From the IMG/VR virus record IMGVR_UViG_3300014911_000006: a stretch of 57,580 nucleotides of DNA; one strand, written 5' to 3'. Position numbers and translations under genes: made by a program. Below, one piece after another: positions 34,833 to 57,410 of the stretch (its first letter is position 1; the number at the start of each line of letters is the position of its first letter). This stretch comes from a virus. The notes beneath the pieces were generated by a model. It ran no database searches. It was not told the DNA's origin and was given only the letters and a program-made list of their open reading frames with translations.

Positions 34833-37800
34833 TCATGGTTTGCTCACTATCTCTGGAGGATTGTCTCCTCTCTTCATTATCCACTCATATCTAGATAGTC
34901 CCTTACCCTTCATCCATGCTCTAGCTGTCTCCTCTGTCCACTTGTCCTTATAGAACTTGAGATATGCTATTCTAGCATGATGAAATGTACCTTCTATAGG
35001 ATATAGACATACACCTATCTCTACTCCCTCTGGTACTTCTAATCCTATAGTCTTGAGATATGGTTCTGGATCTTCACATCTAGTGAACTCTCTAGGATCA
35101 TATAGTCTAAGATAGAAGTAGTCTCTATGATCTTCTAGTAGAGCTGGTTTATATGATTCTCCTGTATATGGATCTCCAGTAGATAGAGACTTATCTGTAG
35201 GTAGTTTAGATTTCATGAATATCCATCCTTTATCTGTCTTCTTAGTTATATAGTATCCTTTAAGCTTCTTGCCATGAAAGATCATAGACATGAAGATATC
35301 ACTATCCTCTATTATCTCTACTTCTCCTTTGTCTAATCTATCTACCTTGGTCTGTAGTTTACCTACCTTTACAAATCCCTCTGTTACCTCATCTGTTATC
35401 CACTTTAGATCTGTACACTTCTTTCTAACTGCTTCTATAGGTTCTTCTATATCTGTCTCTAGAGGATTACTGTATAGATTAAACTCATCTAGATAGTCTC
35501 TATTATCTATTCTCATTCTAATATCATAGTGAGATGTTATCTGTCCTCTAACAGGATATAGAGTATGCTTATCTAGAACAAATATACCCTTAGAGAGACT
35601 GTGTTTAGATATTCTAGAGAGAGTATAGATATCTGAGTCTGGTTCTTCTTGTCTTAATATATATTCTCCTTTTAGAGTCTTACCATTAAACTTTAACTCT
35701 AGTATCTCTTCTCCTAGAGATCCTTCTCCTGACTTGATGTCTACTGTACCTGTATCTAGTAGGACACAATGACATGGTATCTCTTTAGTAGGGCAGTATT
35801 GAGATCTAGGTTTAAGTTCTCCCTCTCTCTTCATCCATCTTCTATCTACTCTACCTTCATAGATAGCTGTTAATGGAGTCTCCCATACTGGATCTCCCTC
35901 AAACATCCATGATCTGACTGATCCTCTACCTCTATCATCTATCCTGATAAACCATCTTCTCTGAGGTATATCTCTAATTACTTTCTGTCCTTTCCAGTAT
36001 ATCATGGAGAATGAGAATCTAGGTTTAGCTAGAGACTCTTCTTCCTTCCACTTCTCCTTAACCCATTCTAACCATTCTTCATACTTCTTCTTGTTCTCTT
36101 CTATCCACCATTTAGGTATAGGTATATGTCCCTTGGGAGGATACCATCCCTTCTTTCTAGCTCTCTTACTTACAGCATAGGGTTCTTGATCTTTAGGTAT
36201 CATCACTCTCCACAGTAGCTCATATTCTCCCTTGATAGGTTTCTTGGTTTCTGGATCTATCTTCTGTGCCTTTACTCCTCTTATTACTACTCTAAGCTTC
36301 TTAAACTTCTCTCCATCTAGAAAGTACTCATGGAAGTATGGTTTCTGTGCTCCTATGGTTATCTTACCCTTATCTAGAAGATAGAACCATCCATATTCAT
36401 ATCTAGTAGCTCCTACTGATCCTTTAGGTATCTTTACTATATCTCCTATCTTCTTTAGTCTTCCTCCTAGATCTAACCATACAACTGGTTGTCTAGCTTT
36501 GGTCTCTGCTCTTAGTCCTACTCCTTTCTTGTTTGGAGTAAACTTCCAGTCATGTTTCTCTACTAACTCTTTAACTTCTTCCTTAGAGTCTGGTTTATCT
36601 TCTAGTCCATTATCTAGTATAGTCCATCCTATTAGATGATTATCTATCTTGAATCTGAAGTCTATATGTACACTATTGTGAACCCTTAAGAAACCTACTC
36701 CTGCTAAGAAATCTTGTGTCTCTGTTTCTACATCATATACATATCTCTTATGAGAATAGAAGAATGTTTCTTCATCAGTAGGAGTATTGACAAGATGTTT
36801 ACCATCCTTGTAGTTTGGATTCTTTTCTCCAATGAAATCTACTGCTTTAGATTCAACTATCTTTCTAACTGTATTTCTGTTCTTGACAGTAAGATTATGT
36901 TCTTTAGAAATTAGTCTAACTCTAATTAGATCTCCTTGTCCTCTTATGTAAAACTCTTTATCAGGATAAAGATTCTTCAGAATGATTAAGATTCCTTGTA
37001 TTAGAGACTGAGAAGAGGAAGCAAACTCTATCTTCTCAGGGTAGCCTATACCATCTCCTTTTAGGTAACCATCTAAAAATGCAGAGAGAGACTCTCTGTT
37101 CCAGTTGAAGATAAAGTCAGGAATGATCTTCCATCTTGCTTTTCTTTCTTTTACCTCATGTACACCTGTAACTGTTCCTTTTGTAAACCTGTAATCTCTG
37201 AAATAGAGATCAGTAATTTCTTTGAATCCTTCTTTCTTACTTTTAACAATGTGATAGTTGAAACCATATCTCTCAAGATAAGATATAACAGGTCTCAAGA
37301 TCTCTGGATCAGTAGTTGTAATCTTGACCACACCATTCCTCTTAACAGAACCCTCTGCTAGAAAGAGTCCCCAAGTATAGGCATAGTCAAGATCAACACT
37401 AACTTCAAGAGGTAATCTAGGAACAGGAATCTCATCTAGAGATACTCCTATCTGTAGATCCTTAGTAGCTATTTCTTGTCCGTTAGAGAAGAGAGAATGA
37501 TCCTCAGTTACTTCAACTACAGAATCCCAAGTAAAGACTCTATATATTCTTTTTGGAGGATGTTTATAGAATCTTTTTAGTTTCTTCCAACCTTTAGATG
37601 TCCAGATCTCTATGCTAGAGAGATCTTCTCTGTTTTCTAGAGTCTTTATAGGTATTACTCTTATTCTATCCTGTTCTCTAATAACTATTGGAGTTCTATC
37701 TGAGACACTTCTTCCTCTTATATGATATTGTAGGACATAGGGTAGCTTACCATTCTTGTTAGGAGGAGGTAGCTCCATATATCTAGCTATGTTAGCTTGT

Positions 37801-37844
37801 AGACTCTGATATCTATCTTTCAACATGTGTTTATAGATTATCAC
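34833..37844 (-). CDS. intein-containing protein with three LigD 3'-phosphoesterase-like domains plus a C-terminal unknown domain
   Basis: spliced YVLQYHIRGR|SVHIDFRF...GW matches LigD PE QxH...HxDFR; repeated LDxG...GxxLKG units. Confidence 0.7.
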   Translation of the reverse strand: MIIYKHMLKDRYQSLQANIARYMELPPPNKNGKLPYVLQYHIRGRSVSDRTPIVIREQDRIRVIPIKTLENREDLSSIEIWTSKGWKKLKRFYKHPPKRIYRVFTWDSVVEVTEDHSLFSNGQEIATKDLQIGVSLDEIPVPRLPLEVSVDLDYAYTWGLFLAEGSVKRNGVVKITTTDPEILRPVISYLERYGFNYHIVKSKKEGFKEITDLYFRDYRFTKGTVTGVHEVKERKARWKIIPDFIFNWNRESLSAFLDGYLKGDGIGYPEKIEFASSSQSLIQGILIILKNLYPDKEFYIRGQGDLIRVRLISKEHNLTVKNRNTVRKIVESKAVDFIGEKNPNYKDGKHLVNTPTDEETFFYSHKRYVYDVETETQDFLAGVGFLRVHNSVHIDFRFKIDNHLIGWTILDNGLEDKPDSKEEVKELVEKHDWKFTPNKKGVGLRAETKARQPVVWLDLGGRLKKIGDIVKIPKGSVGATRYEYGWFYLLDKGKITIGAQKPYFHEYFLDGEKFKKLRVVIRGVKAQKIDPETKKPIKGEYELLWRVMIPKDQEPYAVSKRARKKGWYPPKGHIPIPKWWIEENKKKYEEWLEWVKEKWKEEESLAKPRFSFSMIYWKGQKVIRDIPQRRWFIRIDDRGRGSVRSWMFEGDPVWETPLTAIYEGRVDRRWMKREGELKPRSQYCPTKEIPCHCVLLDTGTVDIKSGEGSLGEEILELKFNGKTLKGEYILRQEEPDSDIYTLSRISKHSLSKGIFVLDKHTLYPVRGQITSHYDIRMRIDNRDYLDEFNLYSNPLETDIEEPIEAVRKKCTDLKWITDEVTEGFVKVGKLQTKVDRLDKGEVEIIEDSDIFMSMIFHGKKLKGYYITKKTDKGWIFMKSKLPTDKSLSTGDPYTGESYKPALLEDHRDYFYLRLYDPREFTRCEDPEPYLKTIGLEVPEGVEIGVCLYPIEGTFHHARIAYLKFYKDKWTEETARAWMKGKGLSRYEWIMKRGDNPPEIVSKP
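36675..37709 (-). mobile_element. intein (345 aa, Ser1, HN/Ser+1) with LAGLIDADG endonuclease
   Basis: SVSDRTPI, TEDHSLF, GLFLAEGS, GYLKGDG, VHN|S. Confidence 0.9.
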
Positions 37845-37987
37845 TCAAAATCACCTTCCCATTCTCTTATTATAGGTGTTCTAAACTCTACCCATACTCT
37901 ACCACACTTCTGACATCTATAGATACATGAGTCTGCTGTACAGGACTCTATACTCCATTCATGTTTACATTCTTCTTTCTCACTCAT
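37841..37987 (-). CDS. 48-aa Zn-ribbon protein linking the ligase and PE genes (not in ORF track)
   Basis: MSEKEECKHEW...YRCQKCG; abuts the upstream stop and has a GTGA overlap downstream. Confidence 0.65.
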   Translation of the reverse strand: MSEKEECKHEWSIESCTADSCIYRCQKCGRVWVEFRTPIIREWEGDFE

Positions 37988-40900
37988 CTATTTACTCACC
38001 TCTATATATTCAGGTAGATCAGTTATATCTCTATACTCATAATAGTAGTCTTTAACATAGACACACTTGTATCTGTTAGCTAGATTACATCTAATGGGGA
38101 ATCTCAATGTCTCTACTTTTACTGATAACTGTTCTCTTATTCTTCTCTCTCTTTCTCTCCATCCCTCTGAATATAGAGGATATAGTGGACATATCTCTGG
38201 ATTATCAAAGTATGGACATCTCTGTAGAGGTATTCTTATCTCTGTCTTGGAGAGAGGATGTGTACCTGCCTCTGCTATTCTCAATGCTGTATCTAATCCA
38301 TCTGGTTCTTTCTTATCTATTCTCTTTCCTCTAAATATAGGGAACATCCATGTTAGATACTTCTTACCCTCTTCATCTCTGAATACTCTTATTCTGATAG
38401 GAGATACTGTTATTATATCTCCCTCTTTACACTTAACATCAGTATTATATGTTCTACCTATATGAAGATACCACTTACCATCTATCTCTACTAGAAACTT
38501 ATCACTCCACTTATCCTTCTCTTTAGGAGGTATTCTAATAACTGCTTCATAGTTATATGTACCTGCCTTAGTCTTATTTATCTTCCATACCATAACATCT
38601 ATCTCCTTTACATTCTTTATCTTGGAGTTATGAAGTATAAGATAAGGAGTGATATAGGAATCTTCTCCCTCTATTTGGAGATCATAGACTGTCTTTTTCT
38701 CATAGATCTCTCTAATCTTGATGGTTAGATCAGGTTCTCCTTTAAGGAATCTAAATCTGAAGTATCCTCTACCTCTTCTTGGCTTTAGTTTCTGAACTGA
38801 GACTTTAAATCCTCTATACTGAAGTATGAGGAAGAGTCTACCTGCAAGAGAACTACTAGATGTGGAGAACCCTACTCTCTTAGAAGAAGACTCAATCCAT
38901 CCATCACCCTCAAGATATCCTTCCAAGAATGCTTTAAACTTAGAATCATCTAACTTAGCAAGAAAGAGAGGAACAGTCTTACGGTCAGACTCATCTAAGA
39001 AGTGTTGACTTAACCAAGATGCAAAGGGAAGATCCCAGAATCTAAGAAGAGCAATCTTATATTTATAGAGAGAAGGTTTGACATTGAAGAGTCTTTCTAT
39101 TATCTTAGAATATTTCTCAAGAACAGAGGGATCTTTCTGACAGACAACTATGTCTCCTTTGTTTCCTTCTTTAGTCTTACTACTTCCTATCCATCCTTCT
39201 GCTACCCAGAATCCTAGGAATCTCCAGAAGTCTTCATTACACTCTATCTTCTTCTTGTAGCCATGCCAAGATAGAACTAAAGTCTTGGGAGGTTCTTCTG
39301 TATAAATCTCTAATTTTGGAAAGAGAGATTTCCTATCCCCTATTTCAGAGACTGGTATCCAAGAATCTGTTGTCAACAGTTCATGATTACCTGTTAATCT
39401 GATTGCTAAACCTGATAATGTTCTCACTTCAAATAATCTTTCCTCTGGTAACATTCTTCTCTTTTGGATAGCTACTATTCTATGTGGTTTTCCATCTTTA
39501 GAGTAAACTAAATCTCCTATCTTGAGATCCTTTACTTTCCTGAAGCCTTTAGGAGTAAGAAGATAAGATCCTCCTGTAATACACCACAGATCTGTTCTAG
39601 GAGTGCTTTTATATGATATCTTGTAAGTAGAGTTAGCTGTCTTTAACATAGCACCTTCACTATTAGGATAGTATCTAGCTTTATCTAGATATTCTTCAAA
39701 CTCATCCTTGTCTCTAGCTATCCATGACTCTACTAGAGACCAATGTCTTAATCCTTTAGGTACTAGCTTCTTTAATAGATTGAGTCTCTCTATATATGGT
39801 TTATCTGTTAACTGTTCTCCATCATAGTAGAGGATATCGTGTATATGGAAGACTACGCTTCTATCATCTAATCCCTTCTTAGCTACTATCCACTTTATCA
39901 TATCCTCTCTCTGATATTGTTCACACTTCTGTTCTATTTCTTTACCTGTCTTATATTTCTCTGCACATTCTGAAGGATAATCCACAAGTTCCGTGTCGAT
40001 TATATAGTCTTTCTCTGGAAACTTCTGTAGCATCTCTCTTACTGATTCTTTGAAGTATTTAGCTCTATCTCTTAACTGATCCTCTGTAAATATCCATATC
40101 TTATCTCCTGCTCTGTGTATCTGTAATCTAAAGCCATCATATTTAGGTTGTATCACTATACCATCATCTATATACTCTGATCCCCAGTTCTTCCATAACA
40201 TAACAGGATCAAAAAACTCATTCTTATTGAAGGTAGTACCTGTCTTCATAGGCTTAAATGGCTTACCTACTGTTATCTTCTTCTCTTTAGATAGAGACTC
40301 ATCTCTACTTACTCTAGTATATGATAGCTTGTAGAGAGGTATATTGTATCCTACCATAGCACCATGAGGAGAGTATATGAAGTGTAGTCTCTTAAATAAC
40401 CAATCTGGTAACACTCTCTCTAGTTCTTTTATCAATCTAGGATCAGGATATCTCTGCTTGATAACTATATCTATATCATGATCTACAGGTATCTCTCCTT
40501 CATTGACTATTCTACCTACTAGGAATATATGAGCAGGAGGATCATTGATAGTGAATGTATTAGGAAATGCATCTAGTACCTCTTTTAGTGTTATCTTATC
40601 TTTCTCTAGTCCTTTAGGAGGAGAAGGATATTCTACTACTATAAGTTCAGATTCTCTATCTAGTTTATCTTTGATAGTATGAGGTATGTTTCTCTCTAGC
40701 ATCTCTTTCCATACAAATATGTGAGCATTGATAGTCTCTTCTGATATTCTACCCTTTTCTTCTAGTTCTCTATTTGCTACTTCATGTAACCAGTCATGTA
40801 GAGATATTAGATCTTTATCAGATAGACTTCTAACTAATCTATCATCTATTTTCTCTATACTCCATTCTGCTAACTCTTCTATCTCTTCTAGATTTATACC

Positions 40901-43576
40901 CTTCTTCTTCAATCTCTCTTTAACCTTCTCATAAAGTTCTCTAGCATACTTCTTCATCTCTTTAGGTCTAAACGTATGTTTTAACTTACCTGCTTTAACT
41001 CTTCTATAGATTTCCTCTACTATCTTTTCTCCAAATTCTACACATTTGTCAGGAGTGAGTTCTATCTTTTTACCAAACTCATGAACATGAATCTTCTTGC
41101 CTCTTCTAATACTGCTATGCCATCCACAGTTATGAACGATAAATGGGATACAGTAAGTATGATCTCCATCAACCACTAGATTATAGACTTTACCAGAATA
41201 ATGTTCTTTCCAGACTTTCTTGATTGGAAGTATTAGATAACCATCTTTCCTAAAGATTACTTGTCCTAGTTTAGGATTAGCTGTAATAGTGTAAGCAATA
41301 GAAGAACCAAAATTAGTTTCTTTAGTGCTCTCAGAGATTGAACCTATCTTTCCTAGCTTAAGTAGACAGAGAAATGCAGAGTAGACCAACTTCTTACTAA
41401 CTGTTGAAACACAGAATGGATGACTCTTCTTTCCATCTCCCTTCCTCCAACAATCAAGAAGTAATTGAATCTTCCTAGGTTCTTCATCTATAACCCATTG
41501 AGGTATAACTTTATTCTTAGCTCCTTTCCCAAAATTGTTTACAAGGAAATCTCTTAGTTCTTTAGAATAAAGATTGATCCTTATCTCTTTTTCTAGTTTC
41601 TTCATAGATCCCTTAATGCCTAATCGTTTAGCTAGTTGTAGGATCTCTTCAGCATATTCTATCTCTAGAGGAGATAAAGAGAAACGTATACAGCCAGAAG
41701 ATGCAGGGAATCCTTCTGCTAGATACCATCCTGCCAGACTGAAGATTTCATCTGGTAGTCCTGAAGGGATAATCTTTTGTGGAATTGGTATCTTAACACC
41801 ATGTCTCTTAGGCTTAAGATCTCTAGCTTCTATCCATTGTTCTTCATATTTATATCCAAGAGATACCCTTCCACCATATGTATTCTTCCAACCTAGATAT
41901 CTTCCTAATCTAGGAACGTAAGAGTTTCTATCATGATCTATTGTAACAATTAGAATAGGATGTTCAGGAGTGGTAGCAAACTCTCCTAGATAAGCTACTC
42001 TAAACTTGATAAGTTCACCATCATAATCTCTACTAAGAGTTTTTAAAATTCTACTTTGACCACTAGAACCAAGGATAGTCTTACTTTCTGGTTGAGAGAT
42101 AAAGGAGAGGGTAGGATTAGTCCATATTAGTGTGTCTGGTGGAAAACATAATATCCTCCAATCATCGGCTAACGGGAGATTGTCTACTTTCTTAGGATCA
42201 TATTTCCCTATATCCTGTATAAGATCTACTCTATCTAGGATACAGTAGCTAGTATCTCTCATACCTTTAGGATGAGGTATCTCTAGTCTATTGAAACACT
42301 CTACTAGATAGTTATGATACTCTATATCTTCATCTGTTATCTCTTCTTTAGAGTGTATCTTAGCATGTTCTAATATTAAATCTTCTAGAGTGAGATCTAA
42401 TACTATATTCTCTGGTTTAATGAATACCTGTGCTCCTCTAGGATACTCTACTGATATAGGAGTAGAGAACTGTTTCAATACAGAGACATGATAGGAATAT
42501 AGTTTATCCTTCTTAGAGAATGACCATCTATCTGCCTCTTCATCTGTTATCTTATGATATTCTCTTAACTGTTTAAACTGTTCTTGTGTTATCTCTTCTG
42601 GTTCATCTAGTCTAATTATACCTAGAGCTTTCTTATCTTCTATTAACAGTAGAGGTTCATTGATATGTTCAGTATACTTCTTAGATTTGATTACTAGTGT
42701 CTTCTCTCCTTTCATAATAAGAGTACCATGAGGAGATACTAGGATATATCCAGCTGTATATTCAGGTATATCTGCTATCTTCTTAGGAGTAATGATATCT
42801 TCTGTGGTAACAGTAAGATCTTTAGAGGATATCTCCATCTTGTCTCTAGCTACTGTTATCTTTATATCTCTGTCTCCCACTAGATCCCCTATCTTCTCTT
42901 TCAATTCTCTATCTCCCATCCCTACTGCTTCTTCTCCTAGATGTGTAAGTATAAGATGTCTAATATCATTTTCTTCTAATATATCTAGTAGCTCTCTAAC
43001 AGAGAGATGACCATATATCTCTCCTGTATCCTTATCTCTTCTAGTTATAGACTTATCTATTGTAGAGGTATCTCCTATCCATACATCTATGTTCTTAAGA
43101 TACTTCTCCTGTTTATCTTTCTTTATCCATCTCATATCTGGAGCATATATTATTCTCTTGTTATCTACTTCTATTAAGAGTATATCCATAGGATGTTTAA
43201 CAGAGTGTAGTACAGGTATAGGAGTTATCTTAAAGTCTCCTAGAGTATTAGTCTGCTCTGATTCTAGTATCTTCAGTCTATTCTCTTTCTTGAAGTGTTC
43301 TATCCAAGAGGGAGTACAGGTATCAAATGTTAGTCTAGTAGCATAGATATCACAGTTAGGATCTTCTTCCTTTAATCCTCCTATATGATCTTTATGTGAG
43401 TGTGTGATTACTATATAGTCTGGTTTGATATTCTCTATCTTCCAGTCTCTATCTACTCCTACATCTACTAATAGCTTCTGTCCACTATTACTGATAACAA
43501 GAATAGAAGAGTGATTTCTATGATTACTATTCTCTTTATCTATTTCTCCCTTAGTACCTAGAAATACTATCTTCAA
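37988..43576 (-). CDS. 1862-aa polyprotein: MBL-fold hydrolase + ASCH-like + His-rich repeats + Pol-beta NTase-like + ATP-dependent ligase (adenylation + OB), two inteins
   Basis: THSHKDH/HSVKH/LTHL; GYILVSPHG..I.KGEKT; LVGRIV...HDIDI; PKYDG, DTELV, HDIL, EGAMLK, W|SKIK, PIFRGKR.DK. Confidence 0.85.
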   Translation of the reverse strand: MKIVFLGTKGEIDKENSNHRNHSSILVISNSGQKLLVDVGVDRDWKIENIKPDYIVITHSHKDHIGGLKEEDPNCDIYATRLTFDTCTPSWIEHFKKENRLKILESEQTNTLGDFKITPIPVLHSVKHPMDILLIEVDNKRIIYAPDMRWIKKDKQEKYLKNIDVWIGDTSTIDKSITRRDKDTGEIYGHLSVRELLDILEENDIRHLILTHLGEEAVGMGDRELKEKIGDLVGDRDIKITVARDKMEISSKDLTVTTEDIITPKKIADIPEYTAGYILVSPHGTLIMKGEKTLVIKSKKYTEHINEPLLLIEDKKALGIIRLDEPEEITQEQFKQLREYHKITDEEADRWSFSKKDKLYSYHVSVLKQFSTPISVEYPRGAQVFIKPENIVLDLTLEDLILEHAKIHSKEEITDEDIEYHNYLVECFNRLEIPHPKGMRDTSYCILDRVDLIQDIGKYDPKKVDNLPLADDWRILCFPPDTLIWTNPTLSFISQPESKTILGSSGQSRILKTLSRDYDGELIKFRVAYLGEFATTPEHPILIVTIDHDRNSYVPRLGRYLGWKNTYGGRVSLGYKYEEQWIEARDLKPKRHGVKIPIPQKIIPSGLPDEIFSLAGWYLAEGFPASSGCIRFSLSPLEIEYAEEILQLAKRLGIKGSMKKLEKEIRINLYSKELRDFLVNNFGKGAKNKVIPQWVIDEEPRKIQLLLDCWRKGDGKKSHPFCVSTVSKKLVYSAFLCLLKLGKIGSISESTKETNFGSSIAYTITANPKLGQVIFRKDGYLILPIKKVWKEHYSGKVYNLVVDGDHTYCIPFIVHNCGWHSSIRRGKKIHVHEFGKKIELTPDKCVEFGEKIVEEIYRRVKAGKLKHTFRPKEMKKYARELYEKVKERLKKKGINLEEIEELAEWSIEKIDDRLVRSLSDKDLISLHDWLHEVANRELEEKGRISEETINAHIFVWKEMLERNIPHTIKDKLDRESELIVVEYPSPPKGLEKDKITLKEVLDAFPNTFTINDPPAHIFLVGRIVNEGEIPVDHDIDIVIKQRYPDPRLIKELERVLPDWLFKRLHFIYSPHGAMVGYNIPLYKLSYTRVSRDESLSKEKKITVGKPFKPMKTGTTFNKNEFFDPVMLWKNWGSEYIDDGIVIQPKYDGFRLQIHRAGDKIWIFTEDQLRDRAKYFKESVREMLQKFPEKDYIIDTELVDYPSECAEKYKTGKEIEQKCEQYQREDMIKWIVAKKGLDDRSVVFHIHDILYYDGEQLTDKPYIERLNLLKKLVPKGLRHWSLVESWIARDKDEFEEYLDKARYYPNSEGAMLKTANSTYKISYKSTPRTDLWCITGGSYLLTPKGFRKVKDLKIGDLVYSKDGKPHRIVAIQKRRMLPEERLFEVRTLSGLAIRLTGNHELLTTDSWIPVSEIGDRKSLFPKLEIYTEEPPKTLVLSWHGYKKKIECNEDFWRFLGFWVAEGWIGSSKTKEGNKGDIVVCQKDPSVLEKYSKIIERLFNVKPSLYKYKIALLRFWDLPFASWLSQHFLDESDRKTVPLFLAKLDDSKFKAFLEGYLEGDGWIESSSKRVGFSTSSSSLAGRLFLILQYRGFKVSVQKLKPRRGRGYFRFRFLKGEPDLTIKIREIYEKKTVYDLQIEGEDSYITPYLILHNSKIKNVKEIDVMVWKINKTKAGTYNYEAVIRIPPKEKDKWSDKFLVEIDGKWYLHIGRTYNTDVKCKEGDIITVSPIRIRVFRDEEGKKYLTWMFPIFRGKRIDKKEPDGLDTALRIAEAGTHPLSKTEIRIPLQRCPYFDNPEICPLYPLYSEGWRERERRIREQLSVKVETLRFPIRCNLANRYKCVYVKDYYYEYRDITDLPEYIEVSK
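38627..39583 (-). mobile_element. intein (319 aa) in ligase motif V, LAGLIDADG
   Basis: W|CITGGS...LTGNHELL...GFWVAEGW...GYLEGDG...LHN|S. Confidence 0.92.
41129..42148 (-). mobile_element. intein (340 aa) in an uncharacterised domain, LAGLIDADG
   Basis: RIL|CFPPDT...TPEHPIL...GWYLAEG...CWRKGDG...VHN|C. Confidence 0.92.
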
Positions 43577-43624
43577 TACTTGTTCACTATAGATAAATAT
43601 AATAGAGGAGATATTTAAGATGAG
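43577..43624. promoter_or_regulatory. short divergent promoter region (probably leaderless transcripts)
   Basis: 48-bp AT-rich gap with TATTTAT/TAAATATAATA about 20-30 nt from both starts. Confidence 0.4.
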
Positions 43625-45712
43625 ATGTCTACAATGAAGAAGCTCTATAGATATTTTGATAACAAGAATATTCTGATTACAGGTGGAGGAGGATTTATAG
43701 GAACTAATCTAGCTAGGAGATTGGTATCTAACTATAACTGTAATGTTACTGTAGCTGATATTAGATTTATAGATTGGTATCTAGAGGATATAGATAGGAA
43801 ACTAGAGAAGATAAGAGTAGATATAAGAGATTATTGGAGATGTCTAAAACTAACTAGAAGAAAGGATATAGTGTTTCATCTATCTGCTAATATGGGAGGT
43901 ATAGGATTCATAGTTACCAATAGAGCTAATGTTATGAGAGATAATCTGAGAATGAATATCAATATGTTAGAGGCTAGTAAGGAGAATAATGTAGAGAGAT
44001 TCTTCTTCTCTAGTTCTGCTTGTGTATATCCAGAAGAGAAGCAGACTACTCCTGATGTTAAGCCTCTAAGAGAGGAGGATGCTATACCTGCTAACCCTGA
44101 TACCTGCTTTACACCTGAAACTATAGTCTACACACAACCAGAGATCAAGAAGATAGAAGAAGTCAAAGAAGGAGATAAGATTCTGAGTGGAGATGGAACT
44201 CTCAGAGAAGTTAAAAGGATCTTCAAGAGACATTATGATGGAAAGATTAGGAAAATAAAGACTTGGATGTATAATATACCCATAAGAGTAACACCAAATC
44301 ATCCATTCTTAGTAGCTAAACGAAAGAAATCAAGACTAAGAGCATTTGAAAAACCAAGATGGTTACCTGCGTTTTCTGTTAAGAAAGGAGATGCATTAGT
44401 GATACCAATAATGAAAGAGATTGAAGAGAAAGAAGTAGATGAGGGATTCTTGAAATTAGCAGGCTATTATCTAGCTGAAGGTTCAATAGATCACAAGAAG
44501 TGTTTTGATAAGCAATATGGTAAAAAGTATTTCAATGGTTGGAGGGTAGCTCTATGGTTTAGTGAGAAAACAAGAGAATTAATGGAAGATATTGAAGAGT
44601 ATCTTAAGACTAGGAAGATAGGATTCACTAAGTATCAACATAAGAATCTTATTGGATTTGAGATAACCTCTAAAGAAATAGCAAGAGAACTAGAAGAATT
44701 TGGGAAAGGAGCTTACAATAAGAAGATTCCTCTATGGATCATGAAATTGCCAAAAGAGAAACAGAGAGTATTCTTAGATGCATATCTTCAAGGTGATGGA
44801 GCAATCTTCAGAGACAAGAATATTGGAAGAGAAATAATAGTAGCAACTACGGTCTCTAGAAGCTTAGCTTTCCAATTAGTTCAAATGTTTCTTAGACAAG
44901 GATATTGTCCTTCAATTACTTTAACCGAAAACAAGGATAGTAAATTAGAAGGCAGAGTCATTAAGGGTGGCTTGATCTTTAGAGTAAAGGCAACAAAGAG
45001 AAAGGGTGACAAGAAATCCAATTGGGCATCTTGGATTGATAATGGTTTCTACTATGTCTTGGTAAGAGAAAGCAGAGAGGAAGACTATTCTGGTCTGGTT
45101 TATAATAGTGAAATAAGCACAATACATAGCTATACTGTAGGAATAGGCTTAGTTGTTCACAATTCCTATGGATGGGAGAAGCTAACTACTGAGAAGCTAT
45201 GTGAAGCATATTATCTAGACTATGAGCTAGAGACTAGAGTAGCTAGATTCCATAATATCTATGGAGAATACTGTAGTTTTGATGAGAGAGGTAAAGCTCC
45301 TGCTCATCTTATAGGTAAAGCGTTACTGTATCCTAGAGTTAGATTTACTATATGGGGAGATGGTAGACAGACTAGATCATTCTGTTATATAGAAGACTGT
45401 CTAGATGCTGTATTACTGTTAACATCATCTGATATTAGAGAACCTCTAAATATAGGATCAGATAGACTTGTTACTATAGATGAACTAGCTAATATGATTA
45501 TAAAGATATCTGGTAAGTATATTGAGAAGGAGTATATAGAAACAGGTATACAGGGAGTAAGAGGAAGGAATGCTGATCTAACTAAGATAAGACAGTTACT
45601 AGGATGGTATCCTAAGTATAGTCTAGAAGAGGGATTAGAGAGAACATTTACATGGGCTTTAAAGAATATTAATAGAATAGATTGGAGTTATCTTCTTAGA
45701 AGTGTTTCTTGA
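43625..45712 (+). CDS. NAD-dependent nucleotide-sugar epimerase (GDP-mannose 3,5-epimerase-like), intein-containing
   Basis: TGGGGFIG, ANMGGIGFI, SSSACVYPE, spliced PANPDT|SYGWEK, GDG.QTRSF. Confidence 0.9.
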   Translation: MSTMKKLYRYFDNKNILITGGGGFIGTNLARRLVSNYNCNVTVADIRFIDWYLEDIDRKLEKIRVDIRDYWRCLKLTRRKDIVFHLSANMGGIGFIVTNRANVMRDNLRMNINMLEASKENNVERFFFSSSACVYPEEKQTTPDVKPLREEDAIPANPDTCFTPETIVYTQPEIKKIEEVKEGDKILSGDGTLREVKRIFKRHYDGKIRKIKTWMYNIPIRVTPNHPFLVAKRKKSRLRAFEKPRWLPAFSVKKGDALVIPIMKEIEEKEVDEGFLKLAGYYLAEGSIDHKKCFDKQYGKKYFNGWRVALWFSEKTRELMEDIEEYLKTRKIGFTKYQHKNLIGFEITSKEIARELEEFGKGAYNKKIPLWIMKLPKEKQRVFLDAYLQGDGAIFRDKNIGREIIVATTVSRSLAFQLVQMFLRQGYCPSITLTENKDSKLEGRVIKGGLIFRVKATKRKGDKKSNWASWIDNGFYYVLVRESREEDYSGLVYNSEISTIHSYTVGIGLVVHNSYGWEKLTTEKLCEAYYLDYELETRVARFHNIYGEYCSFDERGKAPAHLIGKALLYPRVRFTIWGDGRQTRSFCYIEDCLDAVLLLTSSDIREPLNIGSDRLVTIDELANMIIKISGKYIEKEYIETGIQGVRGRNADLTKIRQLLGWYPKYSLEEGLERTFTWALKNINRIDWSYLLRSVS
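44105..45163 (+). mobile_element. intein (353 aa) just before the catalytic YxxxK, LAGLIDADG
   Basis: T|CFTPET...TPNHPF...GYYLAEGS...AYLQGDG...VHN|S. Confidence 0.92.
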
Positions 45713-53262: not shown

Positions 53263-55527
53263 TTACTCCTCTATATTATATTGTCTTGGAAGTGATATAT
53301 ATGTCCATGTACTAGGAGATGAGGAGATCTCTCTGTCTCTGATTGCTCTACAAGCTAACATGAGAGAATCTACATAGTCATCATTTCTCTTGCTATCATA
53401 AGTGTAGGTTCTCATCTGATTAAGTAACTCTACAAAGTCCTCTGGTATTCTGAGTCTCTCTCTTTCCACTAGGAATCTAAGATTTCCTATCATGTGATCT
53501 TTCTCATTTCTGAATGCTACTTCCTCTACATATACTCCCTTCTTTAGAGCTATATCTCTTAGTCTCTGATTACTATCTATATGAGATCTATCTACATATA
53601 TCTTCTTGATGGGATATTCTTCTAAGAGTTGAGCTATTCTCTTAAGGAGATCATCAAACTTGGTTTGAGAGTGTCCCTCTGTATGGAGAACATTAACATA
53701 CTCTCCTTCTATCTGGACTACAGTAAATACTGTAGGGTGCATATTGTGTATAAGAAATGGTTTACCATTCAATCTAGCTAGTATGATCTTGTTGGGGACT
53801 TCAACTGATGCTAGAGATATCTTCTCTATAGAGTACTGGAAGTCTTTTCTTCTTACATGTTTTCTAGGTATTATGAAGTCTACTACATATTGAGAGTTAC
53901 GATCAGGTCTCTTCTTTATCCATGCACAGAATCCACATTTTAAAGCTATCTCCTGTACATCATCTGCTAGTCTCTGAGAGCTAGTATAGAATCTCCATAC
54001 CTTACTCTTAATCTTGTTTTTACACTTCCATCTCCACTCAGATCCATTTCCTTTGAGGAGACCATCTAAGAGTAGTCTCAATTTATCAGGAGATAGATCC
54101 TTAAGTTCAGTTGGTATATATCTCTCTTCTCTATATCCCAATCTCTTAAGATATTTAGCAAGTCTTCTATCATAGATGATGAATCTATTATCCTTATACC
54201 AATGTTTAGGGAACTGAGTAATGAGATCTCTAAGTTCAGAATAAAATCTAGACTTTGGAGTTTGAGATATAATGATCTTTCCTATAGAAATATCCTCTAC
54301 ATATCCCTCTGCTATAAACCATCCTATCAGTCTTAGTGTCTTATCATCAAATGGACTTTCTCTCTTACTCCTATAGAGTCCTGTTCTTGGAATGTAATGA
54401 TGTCCTATCTCAAATGGTCGTAGAAACTGATACTCCTTCTTTTCATTTACTAGACAGAGCTTGTGGTTAGGTGTCATCCTGATCTCTATATTCTTCTTGG
54501 CTAGACTACAGATCTCTACTCTTCTCTCTGGTTCTATCTGAACTGTCTGAACAGGTTGGAATTCCAAGTAGCCAGTAGATTCATCAAATGTTAAGATTTC
54601 CTCTCCTCTGGATATCTTCTTGAGAGACTTCCATCCATCTCTAGTTAAGACTTCTGTGGAACTATCTAAACAGAACCCCCAGTCAATACCTAGATAGCAT
54701 GGTTCAGGTGATACTACTGGCTTACCTCTTATTCTACATTCTCTTAATTCTTTCTCTGGAAATACTCTACCTAAGAGAGGAGAGGGTTCTCCTAGATAGT
54801 TTATTCTAAATGTAGCTTCATCTAGAGTGTTTCTAGCTCTCTCTATACTTTCTTTGTCTATCCAGTTACAGTCCTCTGCTCTCCAGTATGGATATTTCTT
54901 GAATCCCCATCTATCACTAGACTCTGATATTTCTACAAAGAGAGATAGATAATCATAGGGAGTGGATGCTAGTATCACTCTAGAGTACTTCTCTGTCTCT
55001 ACTATAGGTAATGCTTGTTTCAATAGATTATCATCTACATTACCTGCCTCATCTACTATTAATAGATTGACATGAGATCCTAGTACCTGTGTCTCACTAT
55101 GAGCTATTATTCTAAGTTCTGATCCATCTTTAAACTTGGTTCTAGTTTTGAGAGGATCACCATCTATCTCTTCTCTTATCCATCTGTTTCTCTGATATGC
55201 TTCTAGACAGTATTCATATAGATATCTAGACTGTTCAAATCCTCCTGATAATACTAGTACTTTGAAAGGCATTCTTAGATGTTTAGATAATACTAGAGGA
55301 TACCATAGAGCTACACTAGCTAGACACTTAGTCTTACCTGTACCTCTAGCTGAACATAGAAGCATTCTATCTATATCTAGATTAGAGATGTCATCTAGAA
55401 ATTCTCTCTGTTTAGGAGAGGGTTCTAGATTGAATATATCTTGGAAGAAGAGAGATGGTCTCCTGTACCATAGAGATAGCTTTAAAGCCATGTAGAGAGG
55501 ATCTTGATATTTATCTCTATGTTCCAA
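53263..55527 (-). CDS. terL: terminase large subunit, intein-containing
   Basis: ARGTGKT, LIVDEA, LASTP, GIDWG, DDYVDS. Confidence 0.92.
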   Translation of the reverse strand: MEHRDKYQDPLYMALKLSLWYRRPSLFFQDIFNLEPSPKQREFLDDISNLDIDRMLLCSARGTGKTKCLASVALWYPLVLSKHLRMPFKVLVLSGGFEQSRYLYEYCLEAYQRNRWIREEIDGDPLKTRTKFKDGSELRIIAHSETQVLGSHVNLLIVDEAGNVDDNLLKQALPIVETEKYSRVILASTPYDYLSLFVEISESSDRWGFKKYPYWRAEDCNWIDKESIERARNTLDEATFRINYLGEPSPLLGRVFPEKELRECRIRGKPVVSPEPCYLGIDWGFCLDSSTEVLTRDGWKSLKKISRGEEILTFDESTGYLEFQPVQTVQIEPERRVEICSLAKKNIEIRMTPNHKLCLVNEKKEYQFLRPFEIGHHYIPRTGLYRSKRESPFDDKTLRLIGWFIAEGYVEDISIGKIIISQTPKSRFYSELRDLITQFPKHWYKDNRFIIYDRRLAKYLKRLGYREERYIPTELKDLSPDKLRLLLDGLLKGNGSEWRWKCKNKIKSKVWRFYTSSQRLADDVQEIALKCGFCAWIKKRPDRNSQYVVDFIIPRKHVRRKDFQYSIEKISLASVEVPNKIILARLNGKPFLIHNMHPTVFTVVQIEGEYVNVLHTEGHSQTKFDDLLKRIAQLLEEYPIKKIYVDRSHIDSNQRLRDIALKKGVYVEEVAFRNEKDHMIGNLRFLVERERLRIPEDFVELLNQMRTYTYDSKRNDDYVDSLMLACRAIRDREISSSPSTWTYISLPRQYNIEE
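53743..54672 (-). mobile_element. intein (310 aa) in the TerL nuclease domain; +1 residue is Met
   Basis: DWGF|CLDSSTEVLT...TPNHK...GWFIAEG...GLLKGNG...IHN|MHP. Confidence 0.88.
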
Positions 55528-56062
55528 TTATCATTCTCCTCTCTAGATGTGTGAGTAGTTTCTCCATCTGATCGGGAGATAGATCTAGCTCCTTTATCAG
55601 ATCCATTAGAGTCTTAACCATATCTCTAAAGGTAGACTTAGGTCTTGTAGGTATCTTGGAGTATAGTCTCTCCTGTGCCTCTAGTGTAAGTCTAGCCTCT
55701 GATAGCAATCCTCTAATTGCATTTGCTGTTCTAACATCTAGAGGCTTAGTCTCTATTATCTTCTTTGTCATTGATCTAATTATCTCTAGATTCTTCTTTA
55801 TCTCTCTTAGTATAGCCTCTATCTCTTCACTCTCCTTCTCTACTCTTCTTCTAGTTTGTGCCTCTACTAGCTGATCATAGTATGCTCTACAATGTTTAGA
55901 GAAGTGTGATTGAAATGACCAGTAGGATATATCTTCATTGAGTGTTCTAGCTAACTCCTCTAGCTTATCATAGGAATATCCTTCCTCAAATCTCTTCTTC
56001 TCATAGAGAGGTCTATTCTTACTCTTACACACTTTACATCTAGGTTCAAAATAACTGGTCAT
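55517..56062 (-). CDS. terS: terminase small subunit candidate
   Basis: CxxC + HTH + coiled coil, directly upstream of TerL. Confidence 0.65.
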   Translation of the reverse strand: MTSYFEPRCKVCKSKNRPLYEKKRFEEGYSYDKLEELARTLNEDISYWSFQSHFSKHCRAYYDQLVEAQTRRRVEKESEEIEAILREIKKNLEIIRSMTKKIIETKPLDVRTANAIRGLLSEARLTLEAQERLYSKIPTRPKSTFRDMVKTLMDLIKELDLSPDQMEKLLTHLERRMIIGT

Positions 56063-56065
56063 ATA

Positions 56066-57154
56066 TTAATACACCTTTGGTTCTCTTATTATATATTTAG
56101 CTGTTTCTCCATTATAGTCTTCTATTATTATCCATCCTAGTTGAGGTGTTAGTCCCTTCCATATAAGATATGAGTTCTCTCTTTGTAGAGTACCTGACTG
56201 TACTATATAGTGTCCTTTACCTTTAGAGAAGACTGATAATACATGGAGATGTCCTAATACTAGAAAGTCTGGTTTCTCTAGTAGAGAATCCCATAGTCTC
56301 TCTGGTTTGTATGATCTAGCATATCCTGCTCCTCCACTACCATGAGTCATAACTAGACTCCAGTCTTTCTCTAGTCTCAGTTTTGCTACTGCTCCATAGT
56401 AGTATGCTGTATCTACTCTCTGAGCTACTACTCTCAATGCATCTAGACCTACATCTATACTTCCCTTAAGATGTTCCTCATGTCCTCCTATGGTCATATG
56501 GAATCTAGTCTTCTCAGGAAAGGAGTGGAGTATATCTACTAGAGTATCCATCTGTCTCTGTATGTCTGGTTCAACTAGATCTACTAGCTCTCTCTTGTGT
56601 ACTCCTCTCCCTTGAAGTAGATCTCCTGCCATAACTAGATCTTTTACATTATATTCTTCTACATCCTTCTGTAGTTCCTTCATAAGGAGAGGAGAGTATC
56701 CCACTGATCCCACATGCCAGTCAGATGAACAGATGAAGGGTATCCTGATCTGACCTAGAGTTCTATATAGAGATGAGAGATTTCTATCTCCAAATCTAAC
56801 AAGAGTATAGTATTTCTTCTTGCCTGAGGGTATCTCCTTTATATCATATCCCTGTCTCCTGAGAATGGAGATATAGTGTGAGAGATCCTCTAGCTCAAGA
56901 GGAGAGTCCAGATCAGCATTCATGAAAGATAGAAGATCACTAGCCTCTATAGGGAGAGAGGACTCTCTAAGAGTCTCCAGTATATAATCTTCAGGAGAGA
57001 CTCTAATATCAGACTGCTTCTTCTTTAGAGAATAGATCTTGTATCTAACAGAGCTAAGAGATCTGTGAGGAAAGTGTTTAGCAATCTCTATCTCAGGGAT
57101 GTTCTCCTTCATAAGTCTCTTAAGAAGAGAGATCTCATCAGGTGTCCAGTTCAA
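56066..57154 (-). CDS. HTH/wHTH-fused calcineurin-like metallophosphoesterase
   Basis: WT.DE..LL N-terminal HTH; SDWHVG, GDLLQG, GGHE, THG, GHLH. Confidence 0.85.
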   Translation of the reverse strand: MNWTPDEISLLKRLMKENIPEIEIAKHFPHRSLSSVRYKIYSLKKKQSDIRVSPEDYILETLRESSLPIEASDLLSFMNADLDSPLELEDLSHYISILRRQGYDIKEIPSGKKKYYTLVRFGDRNLSSLYRTLGQIRIPFICSSDWHVGSVGYSPLLMKELQKDVEEYNVKDLVMAGDLLQGRGVHKRELVDLVEPDIQRQMDTLVDILHSFPEKTRFHMTIGGHEEHLKGSIDVGLDALRVVAQRVDTAYYYGAVAKLRLEKDWSLVMTHGSGGAGYARSYKPERLWDSLLEKPDFLVLGHLHVLSVFSKGKGHYIVQSGTLQRENSYLIWKGLTPQLGWIIIEDYNGETAKYIIREPKVY

Positions 57155-57194
57155 GATACAAATAACACCAAGAGAAAAAAAAGAGAACTAACCA

Positions 57195-57203
57195 TTTATA
57201 TAA
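57195..57203 (-). promoter_or_regulatory. TATA box (TTATATAAA) for the late/packaging operon
   Basis: about 40 nt upstream of start 57154; palindrome directly upstream. Confidence 0.55.
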
Positions 57204-57207
57204 GTTG

Positions 57208-57224
57208 TGGGACACCGTGTCCCA
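57208..57224. promoter_or_regulatory. palindrome TGGGACA-N3-TGTCCCA
   Basis: same arms as the site at the parB start. Confidence 0.7.
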
Positions 57225-57410
57225 TCCTTAGATCTTCATCTTAGAGGAATAGATATGAGAATAACAGAAACTAGAATAAACAGATAACAGATATTAGAAT
57301 AATAGTCAACCTATCTCTAGTGATATTCTATATATTTATTCTTGAATTTTATTTTCTTATTAGATATTCTCTAGTTTAGATATTCTAGGCTAGTTTAGGC
57401 TACTATACTA

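Follow-up and report, generated by a model that had tools for sequence, protein, structure and literature searches.

We analysed a stretch of 57,580 nucleotides of viral DNA (IMG/VR virus record IMGVR_UViG_3300014911_000006; hereafter the window), in which terL, the gene for the large terminase subunit (53263..55527, minus strand, as are all terL features given below), contains an intein that is followed by Met. Inteins of classes 1–3 all require a nucleophile at this first C-extein position (+1), and their pathways end in a branched intermediate on Cys, Ser or Thr (PMC4031507), a step that is impossible here because there is no +1 nucleophile. The same residue is missing in 12 of the 14 distinct intein alleles found at this terminase site. 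On balance, we favour the view that these alleles form a functional intein lineage which would splice non-canonically, in the manner of type-A bacterial intein-like (BIL) domains, and without any nucleophile from the C-extein. What points to excision with ligation of the exteins is sequence conservation together with the purifying selection acting on terL.

The junction lies at 53751-53734, where the codons ATA CAC AAT ATG CAC CCT give I-H-N and then M-H-P, so that the intein tail ...NGKPFLIHN, with its terminal Asn595 (AAT, 53743-53745), is followed directly by a C-extein starting with MHPTVFTVVQ, the +1 residue being Met596 (ATG, 53740..53742). This confirms the IHN/MHP junction proposed in the first-pass annotation of this DNA, the position of its Met codon (53742-53740), and its premise that the protein appears unspliceable by the standard route. 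The intein has 310 residues (286-595; 53743..54672) and combines a Hint splicing domain with a LAGLIDADG homing endonuclease. It starts directly after GIDWGF (54673-54690), the motif that carries the first Asp of the TerL nuclease, as had also been noted, and this motif adjoins Cys1 (Cys286, codon TGT, 54670..54672), the N-terminal nucleophile that opens block A (CLDSSTEVLT). Block B (T-P-N-H, residues 352-355, 54463..54474) carries His355, invariant in the lineage, and blocks F and G (VEVPNKIILARLNGKPFLIHN, 53743..53805) end in His594-Asn595 (53743-53748), with Ser at position F:4. The residues expected of a Hint-fold intein (Cys286, His355 and His594-Asn595) are thus all present, and the Cys, Ser or Thr that a class 1 intein has at +1 is replaced by Met596.

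The assignment does not depend on these motifs alone. In Pfam, the LAGLIDADG_3 family matches the intein at 1.4e-6, with weak matches to Hint and Intein_splicing. A search of the PDB with the single intein sequence gave no match, and a profile search gave weak matches only, the top one being the Spl DnaX mini-intein (E 3e-4). The AlphaFold model of the intein (eight family members; pLDDT 87.9, pTM 0.88) retrieved TliVMA, PhoVMA, PI-PfuI and PI-SceI in Foldseek, at E values of 4e-17 to 1e-11. The likeness of the insert to inteins is therefore one of homology and not of chance, and in every feature but the +1 residue the insert is an intein.

In order to compare the +1 residues of homologous TerL alleles, as the first-pass annotation had proposed, we carried out an exhaustive HMMER search with an intein-free homologue (P0003, which has 41% identity to the window TerL and carries PF17289). 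This gave 214 relatives at E<=1e-10, and nine other cluster representatives have an intein at exactly the same point of TerL. Scans of viral contigs and metagenomes gave more, and a word-index search yielded the more distant allele P0171 and otherwise few new lineage members. In total, 14 distinct intein alleles are found at the TerL site GxDWGx, directly ahead of x[HD]PT, with position +1 occupied by M, F, F, R, R, R, E, Y, Y, A, A, D, T and T. Cys, Ser or Thr is thus present at +1 in 2/14 of the inteins at the nuclease site, a rate equal to the 19/149 found at this position in distinct intein-free alleles, and +1 varies as freely with the intein as without it; in these 149 alleles GxDWGx-x-[HD]PT is contiguous and the x position highly variable.

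Inteins that occupy other positions in this TerL family behave differently, with Ser or Thr at +1 in 8/8 cases (Fisher p = 1.4e-4). An HMM-anchored survey of related inteins in genome and viral collections found Cys, Ser or Thr at +1 in 110/110, the sole exceptions in that survey being the window intein and, at three loci, an allele of its own lineage with Phe+1. Both kinds can be found in one chain: P0082 has a ...GN/S intein at Walker B and a ...HN/A intein at the nuclease site, and P0050 has ...HN/F at the nuclease site and ...GN/S further downstream. The four other inteins of the window (34833-45712) likewise all have Cys or Ser at +1. Across the alleles compared, the absence of a +1 nucleophile characterises the lineage as a whole at this TerL site (12 of 14 alleles), and since it marks an entire old lineage, it is not an error or a fresh mutation. 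It follows that maturation of these proteins must be non-textbook. As a separate observation, some TerLs of the family (P0082, P0050, P0102 and P0064) hold two or three inteins each, and the sites used in the family are Walker A, Walker B, the nuclease hairpin and a further C-terminal site.

Allele pairs with and without the intein define the excised unit. L042, with the intein, and L071, without it, have 97% extein identity and differ by exactly 951 nucleotides between TGG (Trp) and GCT (Ala), and a second such pair (P0044 and L082) has 98% extein identity. The first pair shows that the excised unit is [Cys...Asn] and that the empty site has no nucleophile. The insertion is precise, in-frame and recently mobile, and a precise in-frame insertion at a conserved site, with intein-free alleles, is what is found for inteins of any class. 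In the AlphaFold model of the intein-free homologue (pLDDT 88.9), strand beta1 (271-276) ends in the nuclease Asp and beta2 spans 283-291, which places the insertion point in the 6-residue beta1-beta2 hairpin loop of the nuclease domain; given this location, the two extein ends would be neighbours.

The 14 inteins form one clade against the canonical inteins of the window (support 95/93), with P0171 (GN/T) in the basal position. The window intein groups with P0061 (Ser1, Thr+1) and P0088 (Asp+1), with support of 99/97. Divergence is deep, with terminal branches of about 1 change per site and 29-32% identity to the window intein. The lineage at the GxDWGx / x[HD]PT hairpin loop is thus both old and mobile.

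Two other ways of reading the junction, and another class, were considered and rejected. A shifted boundary, in which the intein would end after xHP and Thr would be the +1 residue, does not agree with the presence of x[HD]P in the intein-free alleles, nor with the L042/L071 pair, which sets the junctions as W/[C...N]/A. An internal translation start at the +1 ATG fails as a general explanation because Met+1 is unique to the window allele. Class 3 inteins have no N-terminal nucleophile and carry the triplet Trp(B:12)-Cys(F:4)-Thr(G:5). Assignment to this class is ruled out by the presence of Cys1 and by F:4, which is Ser here and variable across the lineage; a +1 nucleophile is required in class 3 as well (PMC4031507).

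The splicing residues are kept or changed in a consistent manner. Position 1 is Cys in 13 of the 14 alleles and Ser in one, and the block-B His and the terminal Asn are each found in 14/14. Among the ingroup (the 13 alleles other than the basal P0171), the Arg of the RRNGK-type block is kept throughout, and His precedes the terminal Asn in 13/13, whereas a comparison set of five canonical relatives of the same structural type has Gly there (5/5). Position F:4, which is Cys in the canonical relatives, is S, S, T, A, Y, G, G, A, A, D, R, T and T in the ingroup, and the block-B Thr position is K, R or A in 8/13. In addition, a lineage-specific motif, [TS]H[HD]..[IL].R (54385..54402), lies between block B and the endonuclease. 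Its His376 and Arg381 are invariant in the nucleophile-less clade (alignments A1 and A2), the motif is absent from the canonical relatives, and it may be a catalytic adaptation. Both F:4 and the penultimate His have been described as assisting residues, and in one intein structure an Asp at F:4 is hydrogen-bonded to the Cys+1 thiol (PMC4031507). The changes in the active site would fit a loss of transesterification and a reliance on uncoupled Asn cyclisation.

In the endonuclease, LAGLIDADG motif 1 (LRLIGWFIAEGY, 54301..54336) contains the catalytic Glu407, and motif 2 (RLLLDGLLKGNGS, 54040..54078) reads LLKGNGS at residues 490-496, in agreement with the KGNG of the first-pass annotation. Asn494 (54046-54048) represents an Asp-to-Asn change at the catalytic position, because the other 12 ingroup alleles keep Asp there (KGDGD/E/N/S). 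The LAGLIDADG fold is present, and of the catalytic Asp/Glu that a double-motif enzyme has in both helices, the one in motif 2 is replaced by Asn494, which makes double-strand cleavage activity doubtful. The homing endonuclease of the window allele is probably inactive (D494N) and evolving neutrally.

From these features we propose the following route. An N-S acyl shift at Cys1 would form the N-terminal thioester, and cyclisation of Asn595, assisted by His594, would cut the C-terminal junction with no branched intermediate. Because the insertion lies in the beta1-beta2 loop, the new amino terminus would stand beside the thioester after Asn cyclisation. The alpha-amino group released at Met596, kept close to the thioester by the hairpin, could then attack it and form the peptide bond F285-M596, giving a TerL with the same layout as in the intein-free alleles. 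Opinion is evenly balanced, in our judgement, on a broader proposal, namely that these are mobile inteins of a fourth mechanistic kind, which would ligate efficiently without a +1 side-chain nucleophile by way of the thioester, uncoupled Asn cyclisation and alpha-amine attack.

The state of terL in related strains bears on this proposal. Near-identical genes are found in several assemblies within the 90% protein cluster of the window TerL, and full-length genomes of ~57 kb have been assembled repeatedly from several samples. The +1 codon is ATG throughout, both in the window and in a further six assemblies (ERZ650341, JGI 3300028891, ERZ27227320, SRR6823441, Ga0180300 and ERZ27245482), seven in total, although some ENA assemblies may reuse JGI reads, so that the number of fully independent samples is somewhat below 7. 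At the DNA level, three strain lineages can be told apart: A (the window, ERZ27227320 and SRR6823441), B (ERZ650341, JGI 3300028891 and Ga0180300), which differs from A by 48 nucleotides within the gene, and C (short contigs of JGI 3300010332 and ERZ27245482). A base-call or assembly error at 53740-53742, which the first-pass annotation had listed among its options, is highly improbable, as the same ATG comes from seven assemblies, with different assemblers and samples, which refutes it at the assembly level, and nothing was found in its favour.

Between lineages A and B, the N-extein has a dS of 0.18 and a dN/dS of 0.074, the intein a dS of ~0.016 and a dN/dS of 0.35, and the C-extein a dS of ~0.02 and a dN/dS of 0.13. 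The changes in the intein divide into 4 non-synonymous and 1 synonymous in the endonuclease, and 0 and 2, respectively, in the Hint parts. The strong purifying selection on the N-extein, and the finding of a single terL, since tblastn found no second copy in the window, intein-free or otherwise, indicate that the host gene is functional and in use. The divergence between the window (53263-57300) and contig L001 is mosaic, with a dense patch in the N-extein that stops at the intein start and only ~1% divergence between strains in the intein, C-extein and portal, which suggests recombination or co-conversion around the intein.

Several points weigh against the splicing that we propose. In the BILs tested, cleavage products dominate, and an element of M. 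magnetotacticum with Tyr at +1 did not splice until the Tyr was changed to Cys (PMC4031507, PMC7664689). Efficient aminolysis in a natural intein is something that we infer by analogy, and His376 and Arg381 are only candidates for positioning or deprotonating the amino group. The fold, as judged by Foldseek with the AlphaFold model, is like that of ordinary endonuclease-bearing class 1 inteins, not of BILs. Furthermore, broken or two-piece versions of terL exist in nature. In lineage B, the gene L032:2168-4429 (Ga0180300_10000018), which lies on a full-length 56.9-kb contig, has a stop codon in the intein, GGA>TGA at codon 408 in LAGLIDADG motif 1, that truncates TerL. In lineage C (L272, L274 and L273), two deletions bracket the intein body and leave the TerL halves separately readable: 1 nucleotide is missing 28 codons into the intein (window 54588) and 2 nucleotides are missing 7 codons past Met+1 (window 53721-53722), a net loss of 3 nucleotides. 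The exteins there share one frame, and the intein frame is open yet out of phase, so that three open reading frames (ORFs) are called: TerL-N, the body of the intein, and TerL-C from a new ATG. The lineage C exteins have 100% protein identity to the window, with ~30 synonymous differences. No contig of this lineage spans the middle of the endonuclease, and an exact-match scan of viral contigs gave no match to the deletion junction. Lineage C may represent defective genomes, a two-piece TerL or short-contig errors.

The alternative that survives best, although we consider it clearly less probable than splicing, is that the Hint domain cuts both junctions without ligation, through thioester hydrolysis or thiolysis at Cys1 and cyclisation of Asn595. 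TerL would then consist of two non-covalently associated chains, with beta1 of the ATPase fragment paired to beta2 of the nuclease fragment. This would agree with the mainly cleaved products of BILs without a +1 nucleophile (PMC7664689, PMC4031507), with a hairpin loop that, in the model, could tolerate a chain break, and with lineage C, where the N-part and the C-part, the latter with its own ATG, are separate ORFs and the exteins are 100% identical in protein. However, recent lesions or short-contig errors could account for the indels of lineage C, and that lineage aside, no split terL at this site was found among ~170 family members. The intein-free alleles at 97-98% identity are single chains, and each homing event would have to turn an essential one-chain enzyme into one of two chains. 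Non-canonical splicing is ranked ahead of cleavage alone, and both survive.

It seems unlikely that another nucleophile replaces the missing one, either a host or viral factor, or the conserved Thr at +4/+5 (x[HD]P-T), which would attack the thioester and pass the acyl group over a long range to the alpha-amine. A Thr is indeed present at +4 or +5 in 12/12 of the alleles without a +1 nucleophile, but it is nearly invariant in the intein-free alleles too (T283 in A3), and is for this reason an extein feature. Its spacing from the junction also varies (+4 vs +5), and an ester at an internal Thr could not be resolved by the normal adjacent O-N shift.

Slightly less probable still is that terL is not processed or not functional, the intein being tolerated within TerL, or the virus being defective or helper-dependent after a change from Thr (ACG) to Met (ATG), as the first-pass annotation had suggested. 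The nearest intein relative, P0061, has Thr+1, the CpG observed/expected ratio of 0.04 agrees with a loss of ACG codons, terL carries lesions in some assemblies, and the endonuclease has a dN/dS of ~1 in addition to D494N. Against this, one recent mutation cannot explain a pattern in which 12/14 alleles lack the nucleophile, and the N-extein dN/dS of 0.074 and the repeated assembly of full-length ~57 kb genomes from several samples speak against this reading. Moreover, Cys1, the block-B His and the His-Asn pair are kept over deep divergence, which would be needless in an unprocessed insert, and 310 residues placed three residues past the catalytic Asp would part beta1 from beta2. A Thr-to-Met change is possible in the window allele's own history, in view of P0061, and would be neutral in this lineage; a recent mutation that makes the virus defective is not needed and is poorly supported, with no second terL in the window. 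Of the four options originally offered, non-canonical splicing and cleavage alone therefore stand, and sequencing error and recent mutation do not.

The only Hint domains described as being without a +1 nucleophile are the BILs. Those of type A end in His-Asn and can splice in three steps, in which a thioester forms, the Asn cyclises and the amino group thus freed makes the attack, with cleavage dominating (PMC4031507, PMC7664689). The terL element resembles the type-A BILs, represented by Clostridium thermocellum BIL4 (PDB 2LWY; Dassa et al. 2004 JBC; Aranko et al. 2013 FEBS J, as cited in PMC4031507 and PMC7664689), in having a Hint domain with an N-terminal Cys, a C-terminal His-Asn and no C-flanking nucleophile, and the three steps proposed here are also those given above for type A. 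In contrast, BILs are found in hypervariable regions of non-conserved bacterial proteins and have no homing endonuclease (PMC7765530), and they mostly cleave (PMC7664689), whereas the terL element lies in the catalytic core of a viral enzyme that is essential and conserved, has a LAGLIDADG endonuclease, is polymorphic for presence and absence, and has a fold like that of archaeal VMA inteins, PI-PfuI and PI-SceI. The combination of a Hint domain, a C-terminal His-Asn and no C-flanking nucleophile is thus shared with type A, and the location in a variable region of a non-conserved bacterial protein, with no endonuclease, is not. By analogy, the element would be like a type-A BIL in its working and is not a member of the BIL family.

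With the class 1 LAGLIDADG inteins (TliVMA/PhoVMA, 7QSU/7QST; PI-PfuI, 1DQ3; PI-SceI, 1VDE) it shares the fold, Cys1, the block-B His, the terminal Asn and the endonuclease, as well as the insertion at a conserved active-site motif and a homing-type polymorphism. Its nearest sequence relatives are the 'RRNGK...GN/S or T' inteins at Walker B of the same TerL family, together with P0171 at the nuclease site. The terL lineage differs from class 1 in having no Cys, Ser or Thr at +1 in 12/14 alleles, a penultimate His instead of Gly in the ingroup, an unconserved F:4, and often Lys or Arg in place of the block-B Thr.

Inteins are also known in the TerL proteins of mycobacteriophages (Kelley et al. 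2016, PMC5050341) and actinobacteriophages (10.1101/2025.01.02.630785). In these phages, splicing is needed for motor assembly and homing between related phages has been demonstrated (PMC5050341; 10.1101/2025.01.02.630785). The mycobacteriophage inteins are of class 1 or class 3, at seven sites that are all in the ATPase domain (PMC5050341); unlike these phage terminase inteins, the one in the window is in the nuclease domain and has no +1 nucleophile. The term 'non-canonical', as used for actinophage inteins, concerns the endonuclease architecture only (10.1101/2025.01.02.630785). Our literature searches, with subscription journals outside their coverage, found no published description of a natural intein without a +1 nucleophile.

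In intein annotation a +1 nucleophile counts as obligatory, and pipelines that demand it will miss or mis-call genes such as this one; the scar that it leaves is also a practical limit in intein-based protein engineering. If the lineage does splice, it would offer a natural, and presumably efficient, ligation route without a side-chain nucleophile, for which the invariant penultimate His, the loss of F:4 and the new His/Arg motif are candidate determinants. If it represents a fourth mechanistic kind, sites without Cys, Ser or Thr could be invaded, and these inteins would provide natural templates for ligating proteins at any residue without leaving a scar. If instead the element only cleaves, a packaging motor can work with a nuclease sheet built from two chains.

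The terL gene itself is listed as an ORF of 754 residues from TTG, according to the ORF list and its translation, and its start is likely the ATG at 55489-55491, which gives 742 residues. The listed TTG start (in the region 55489-55527) lies in an overlap with the end of the upstream gene, which encodes 181 residues, and gene callers elsewhere place the start at the ATG 12 codons downstream of the TTG (742 residues). The N-extein (residues 1-285, 54673..55527) comprises the ATPase domain, the linker and nuclease strand beta1, and the C-extein (residues 596-754 and the stop codon, 53263..53742) comprises the remaining RNase H-like nuclease domain, from strand beta2 (MHPTVFTVVQ) onwards. The features of a TerL are all found, with Walker A (GTGKT, 55330-55344) and Walker B (LLIVDEA, 55045-55065) in the ATPase, and GIDWG in the RNase H-like nuclease. 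Terminase_6C (Pfam) matches the C-extein with 21.9 bits, slightly below its cut-off of 22.6, since this domain is interrupted by the intein. The annotated terminases of HGTV-1 and of an Altiarchaeum virus also match the window TerL. The window represents a tailed virus of ~57 kb, in which the best matches of PolB and TerL are to haloarchaeal tailed viruses.

The four other inteins of the window are distributed over three proteins: two lie in an MBL/ligase polyprotein of 1862 residues (junctions HN/C and HN/S), one in a sugar epimerase (HN/S) and one in a LigD-PE-like protein of 1003 residues (Ser1...HN/S). Strain lineage B is without the epimerase intein (339 residues vs 692-695) and without one of the polyprotein inteins (1522 residues vs 1862). 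Over the whole window (1-57580), CpG is near-absent, with 69 CG in 57.6 kb (observed/expected 0.04), the GC dinucleotide is also low (0.53), and CT (1.68) and AG (1.87) are over-represented.

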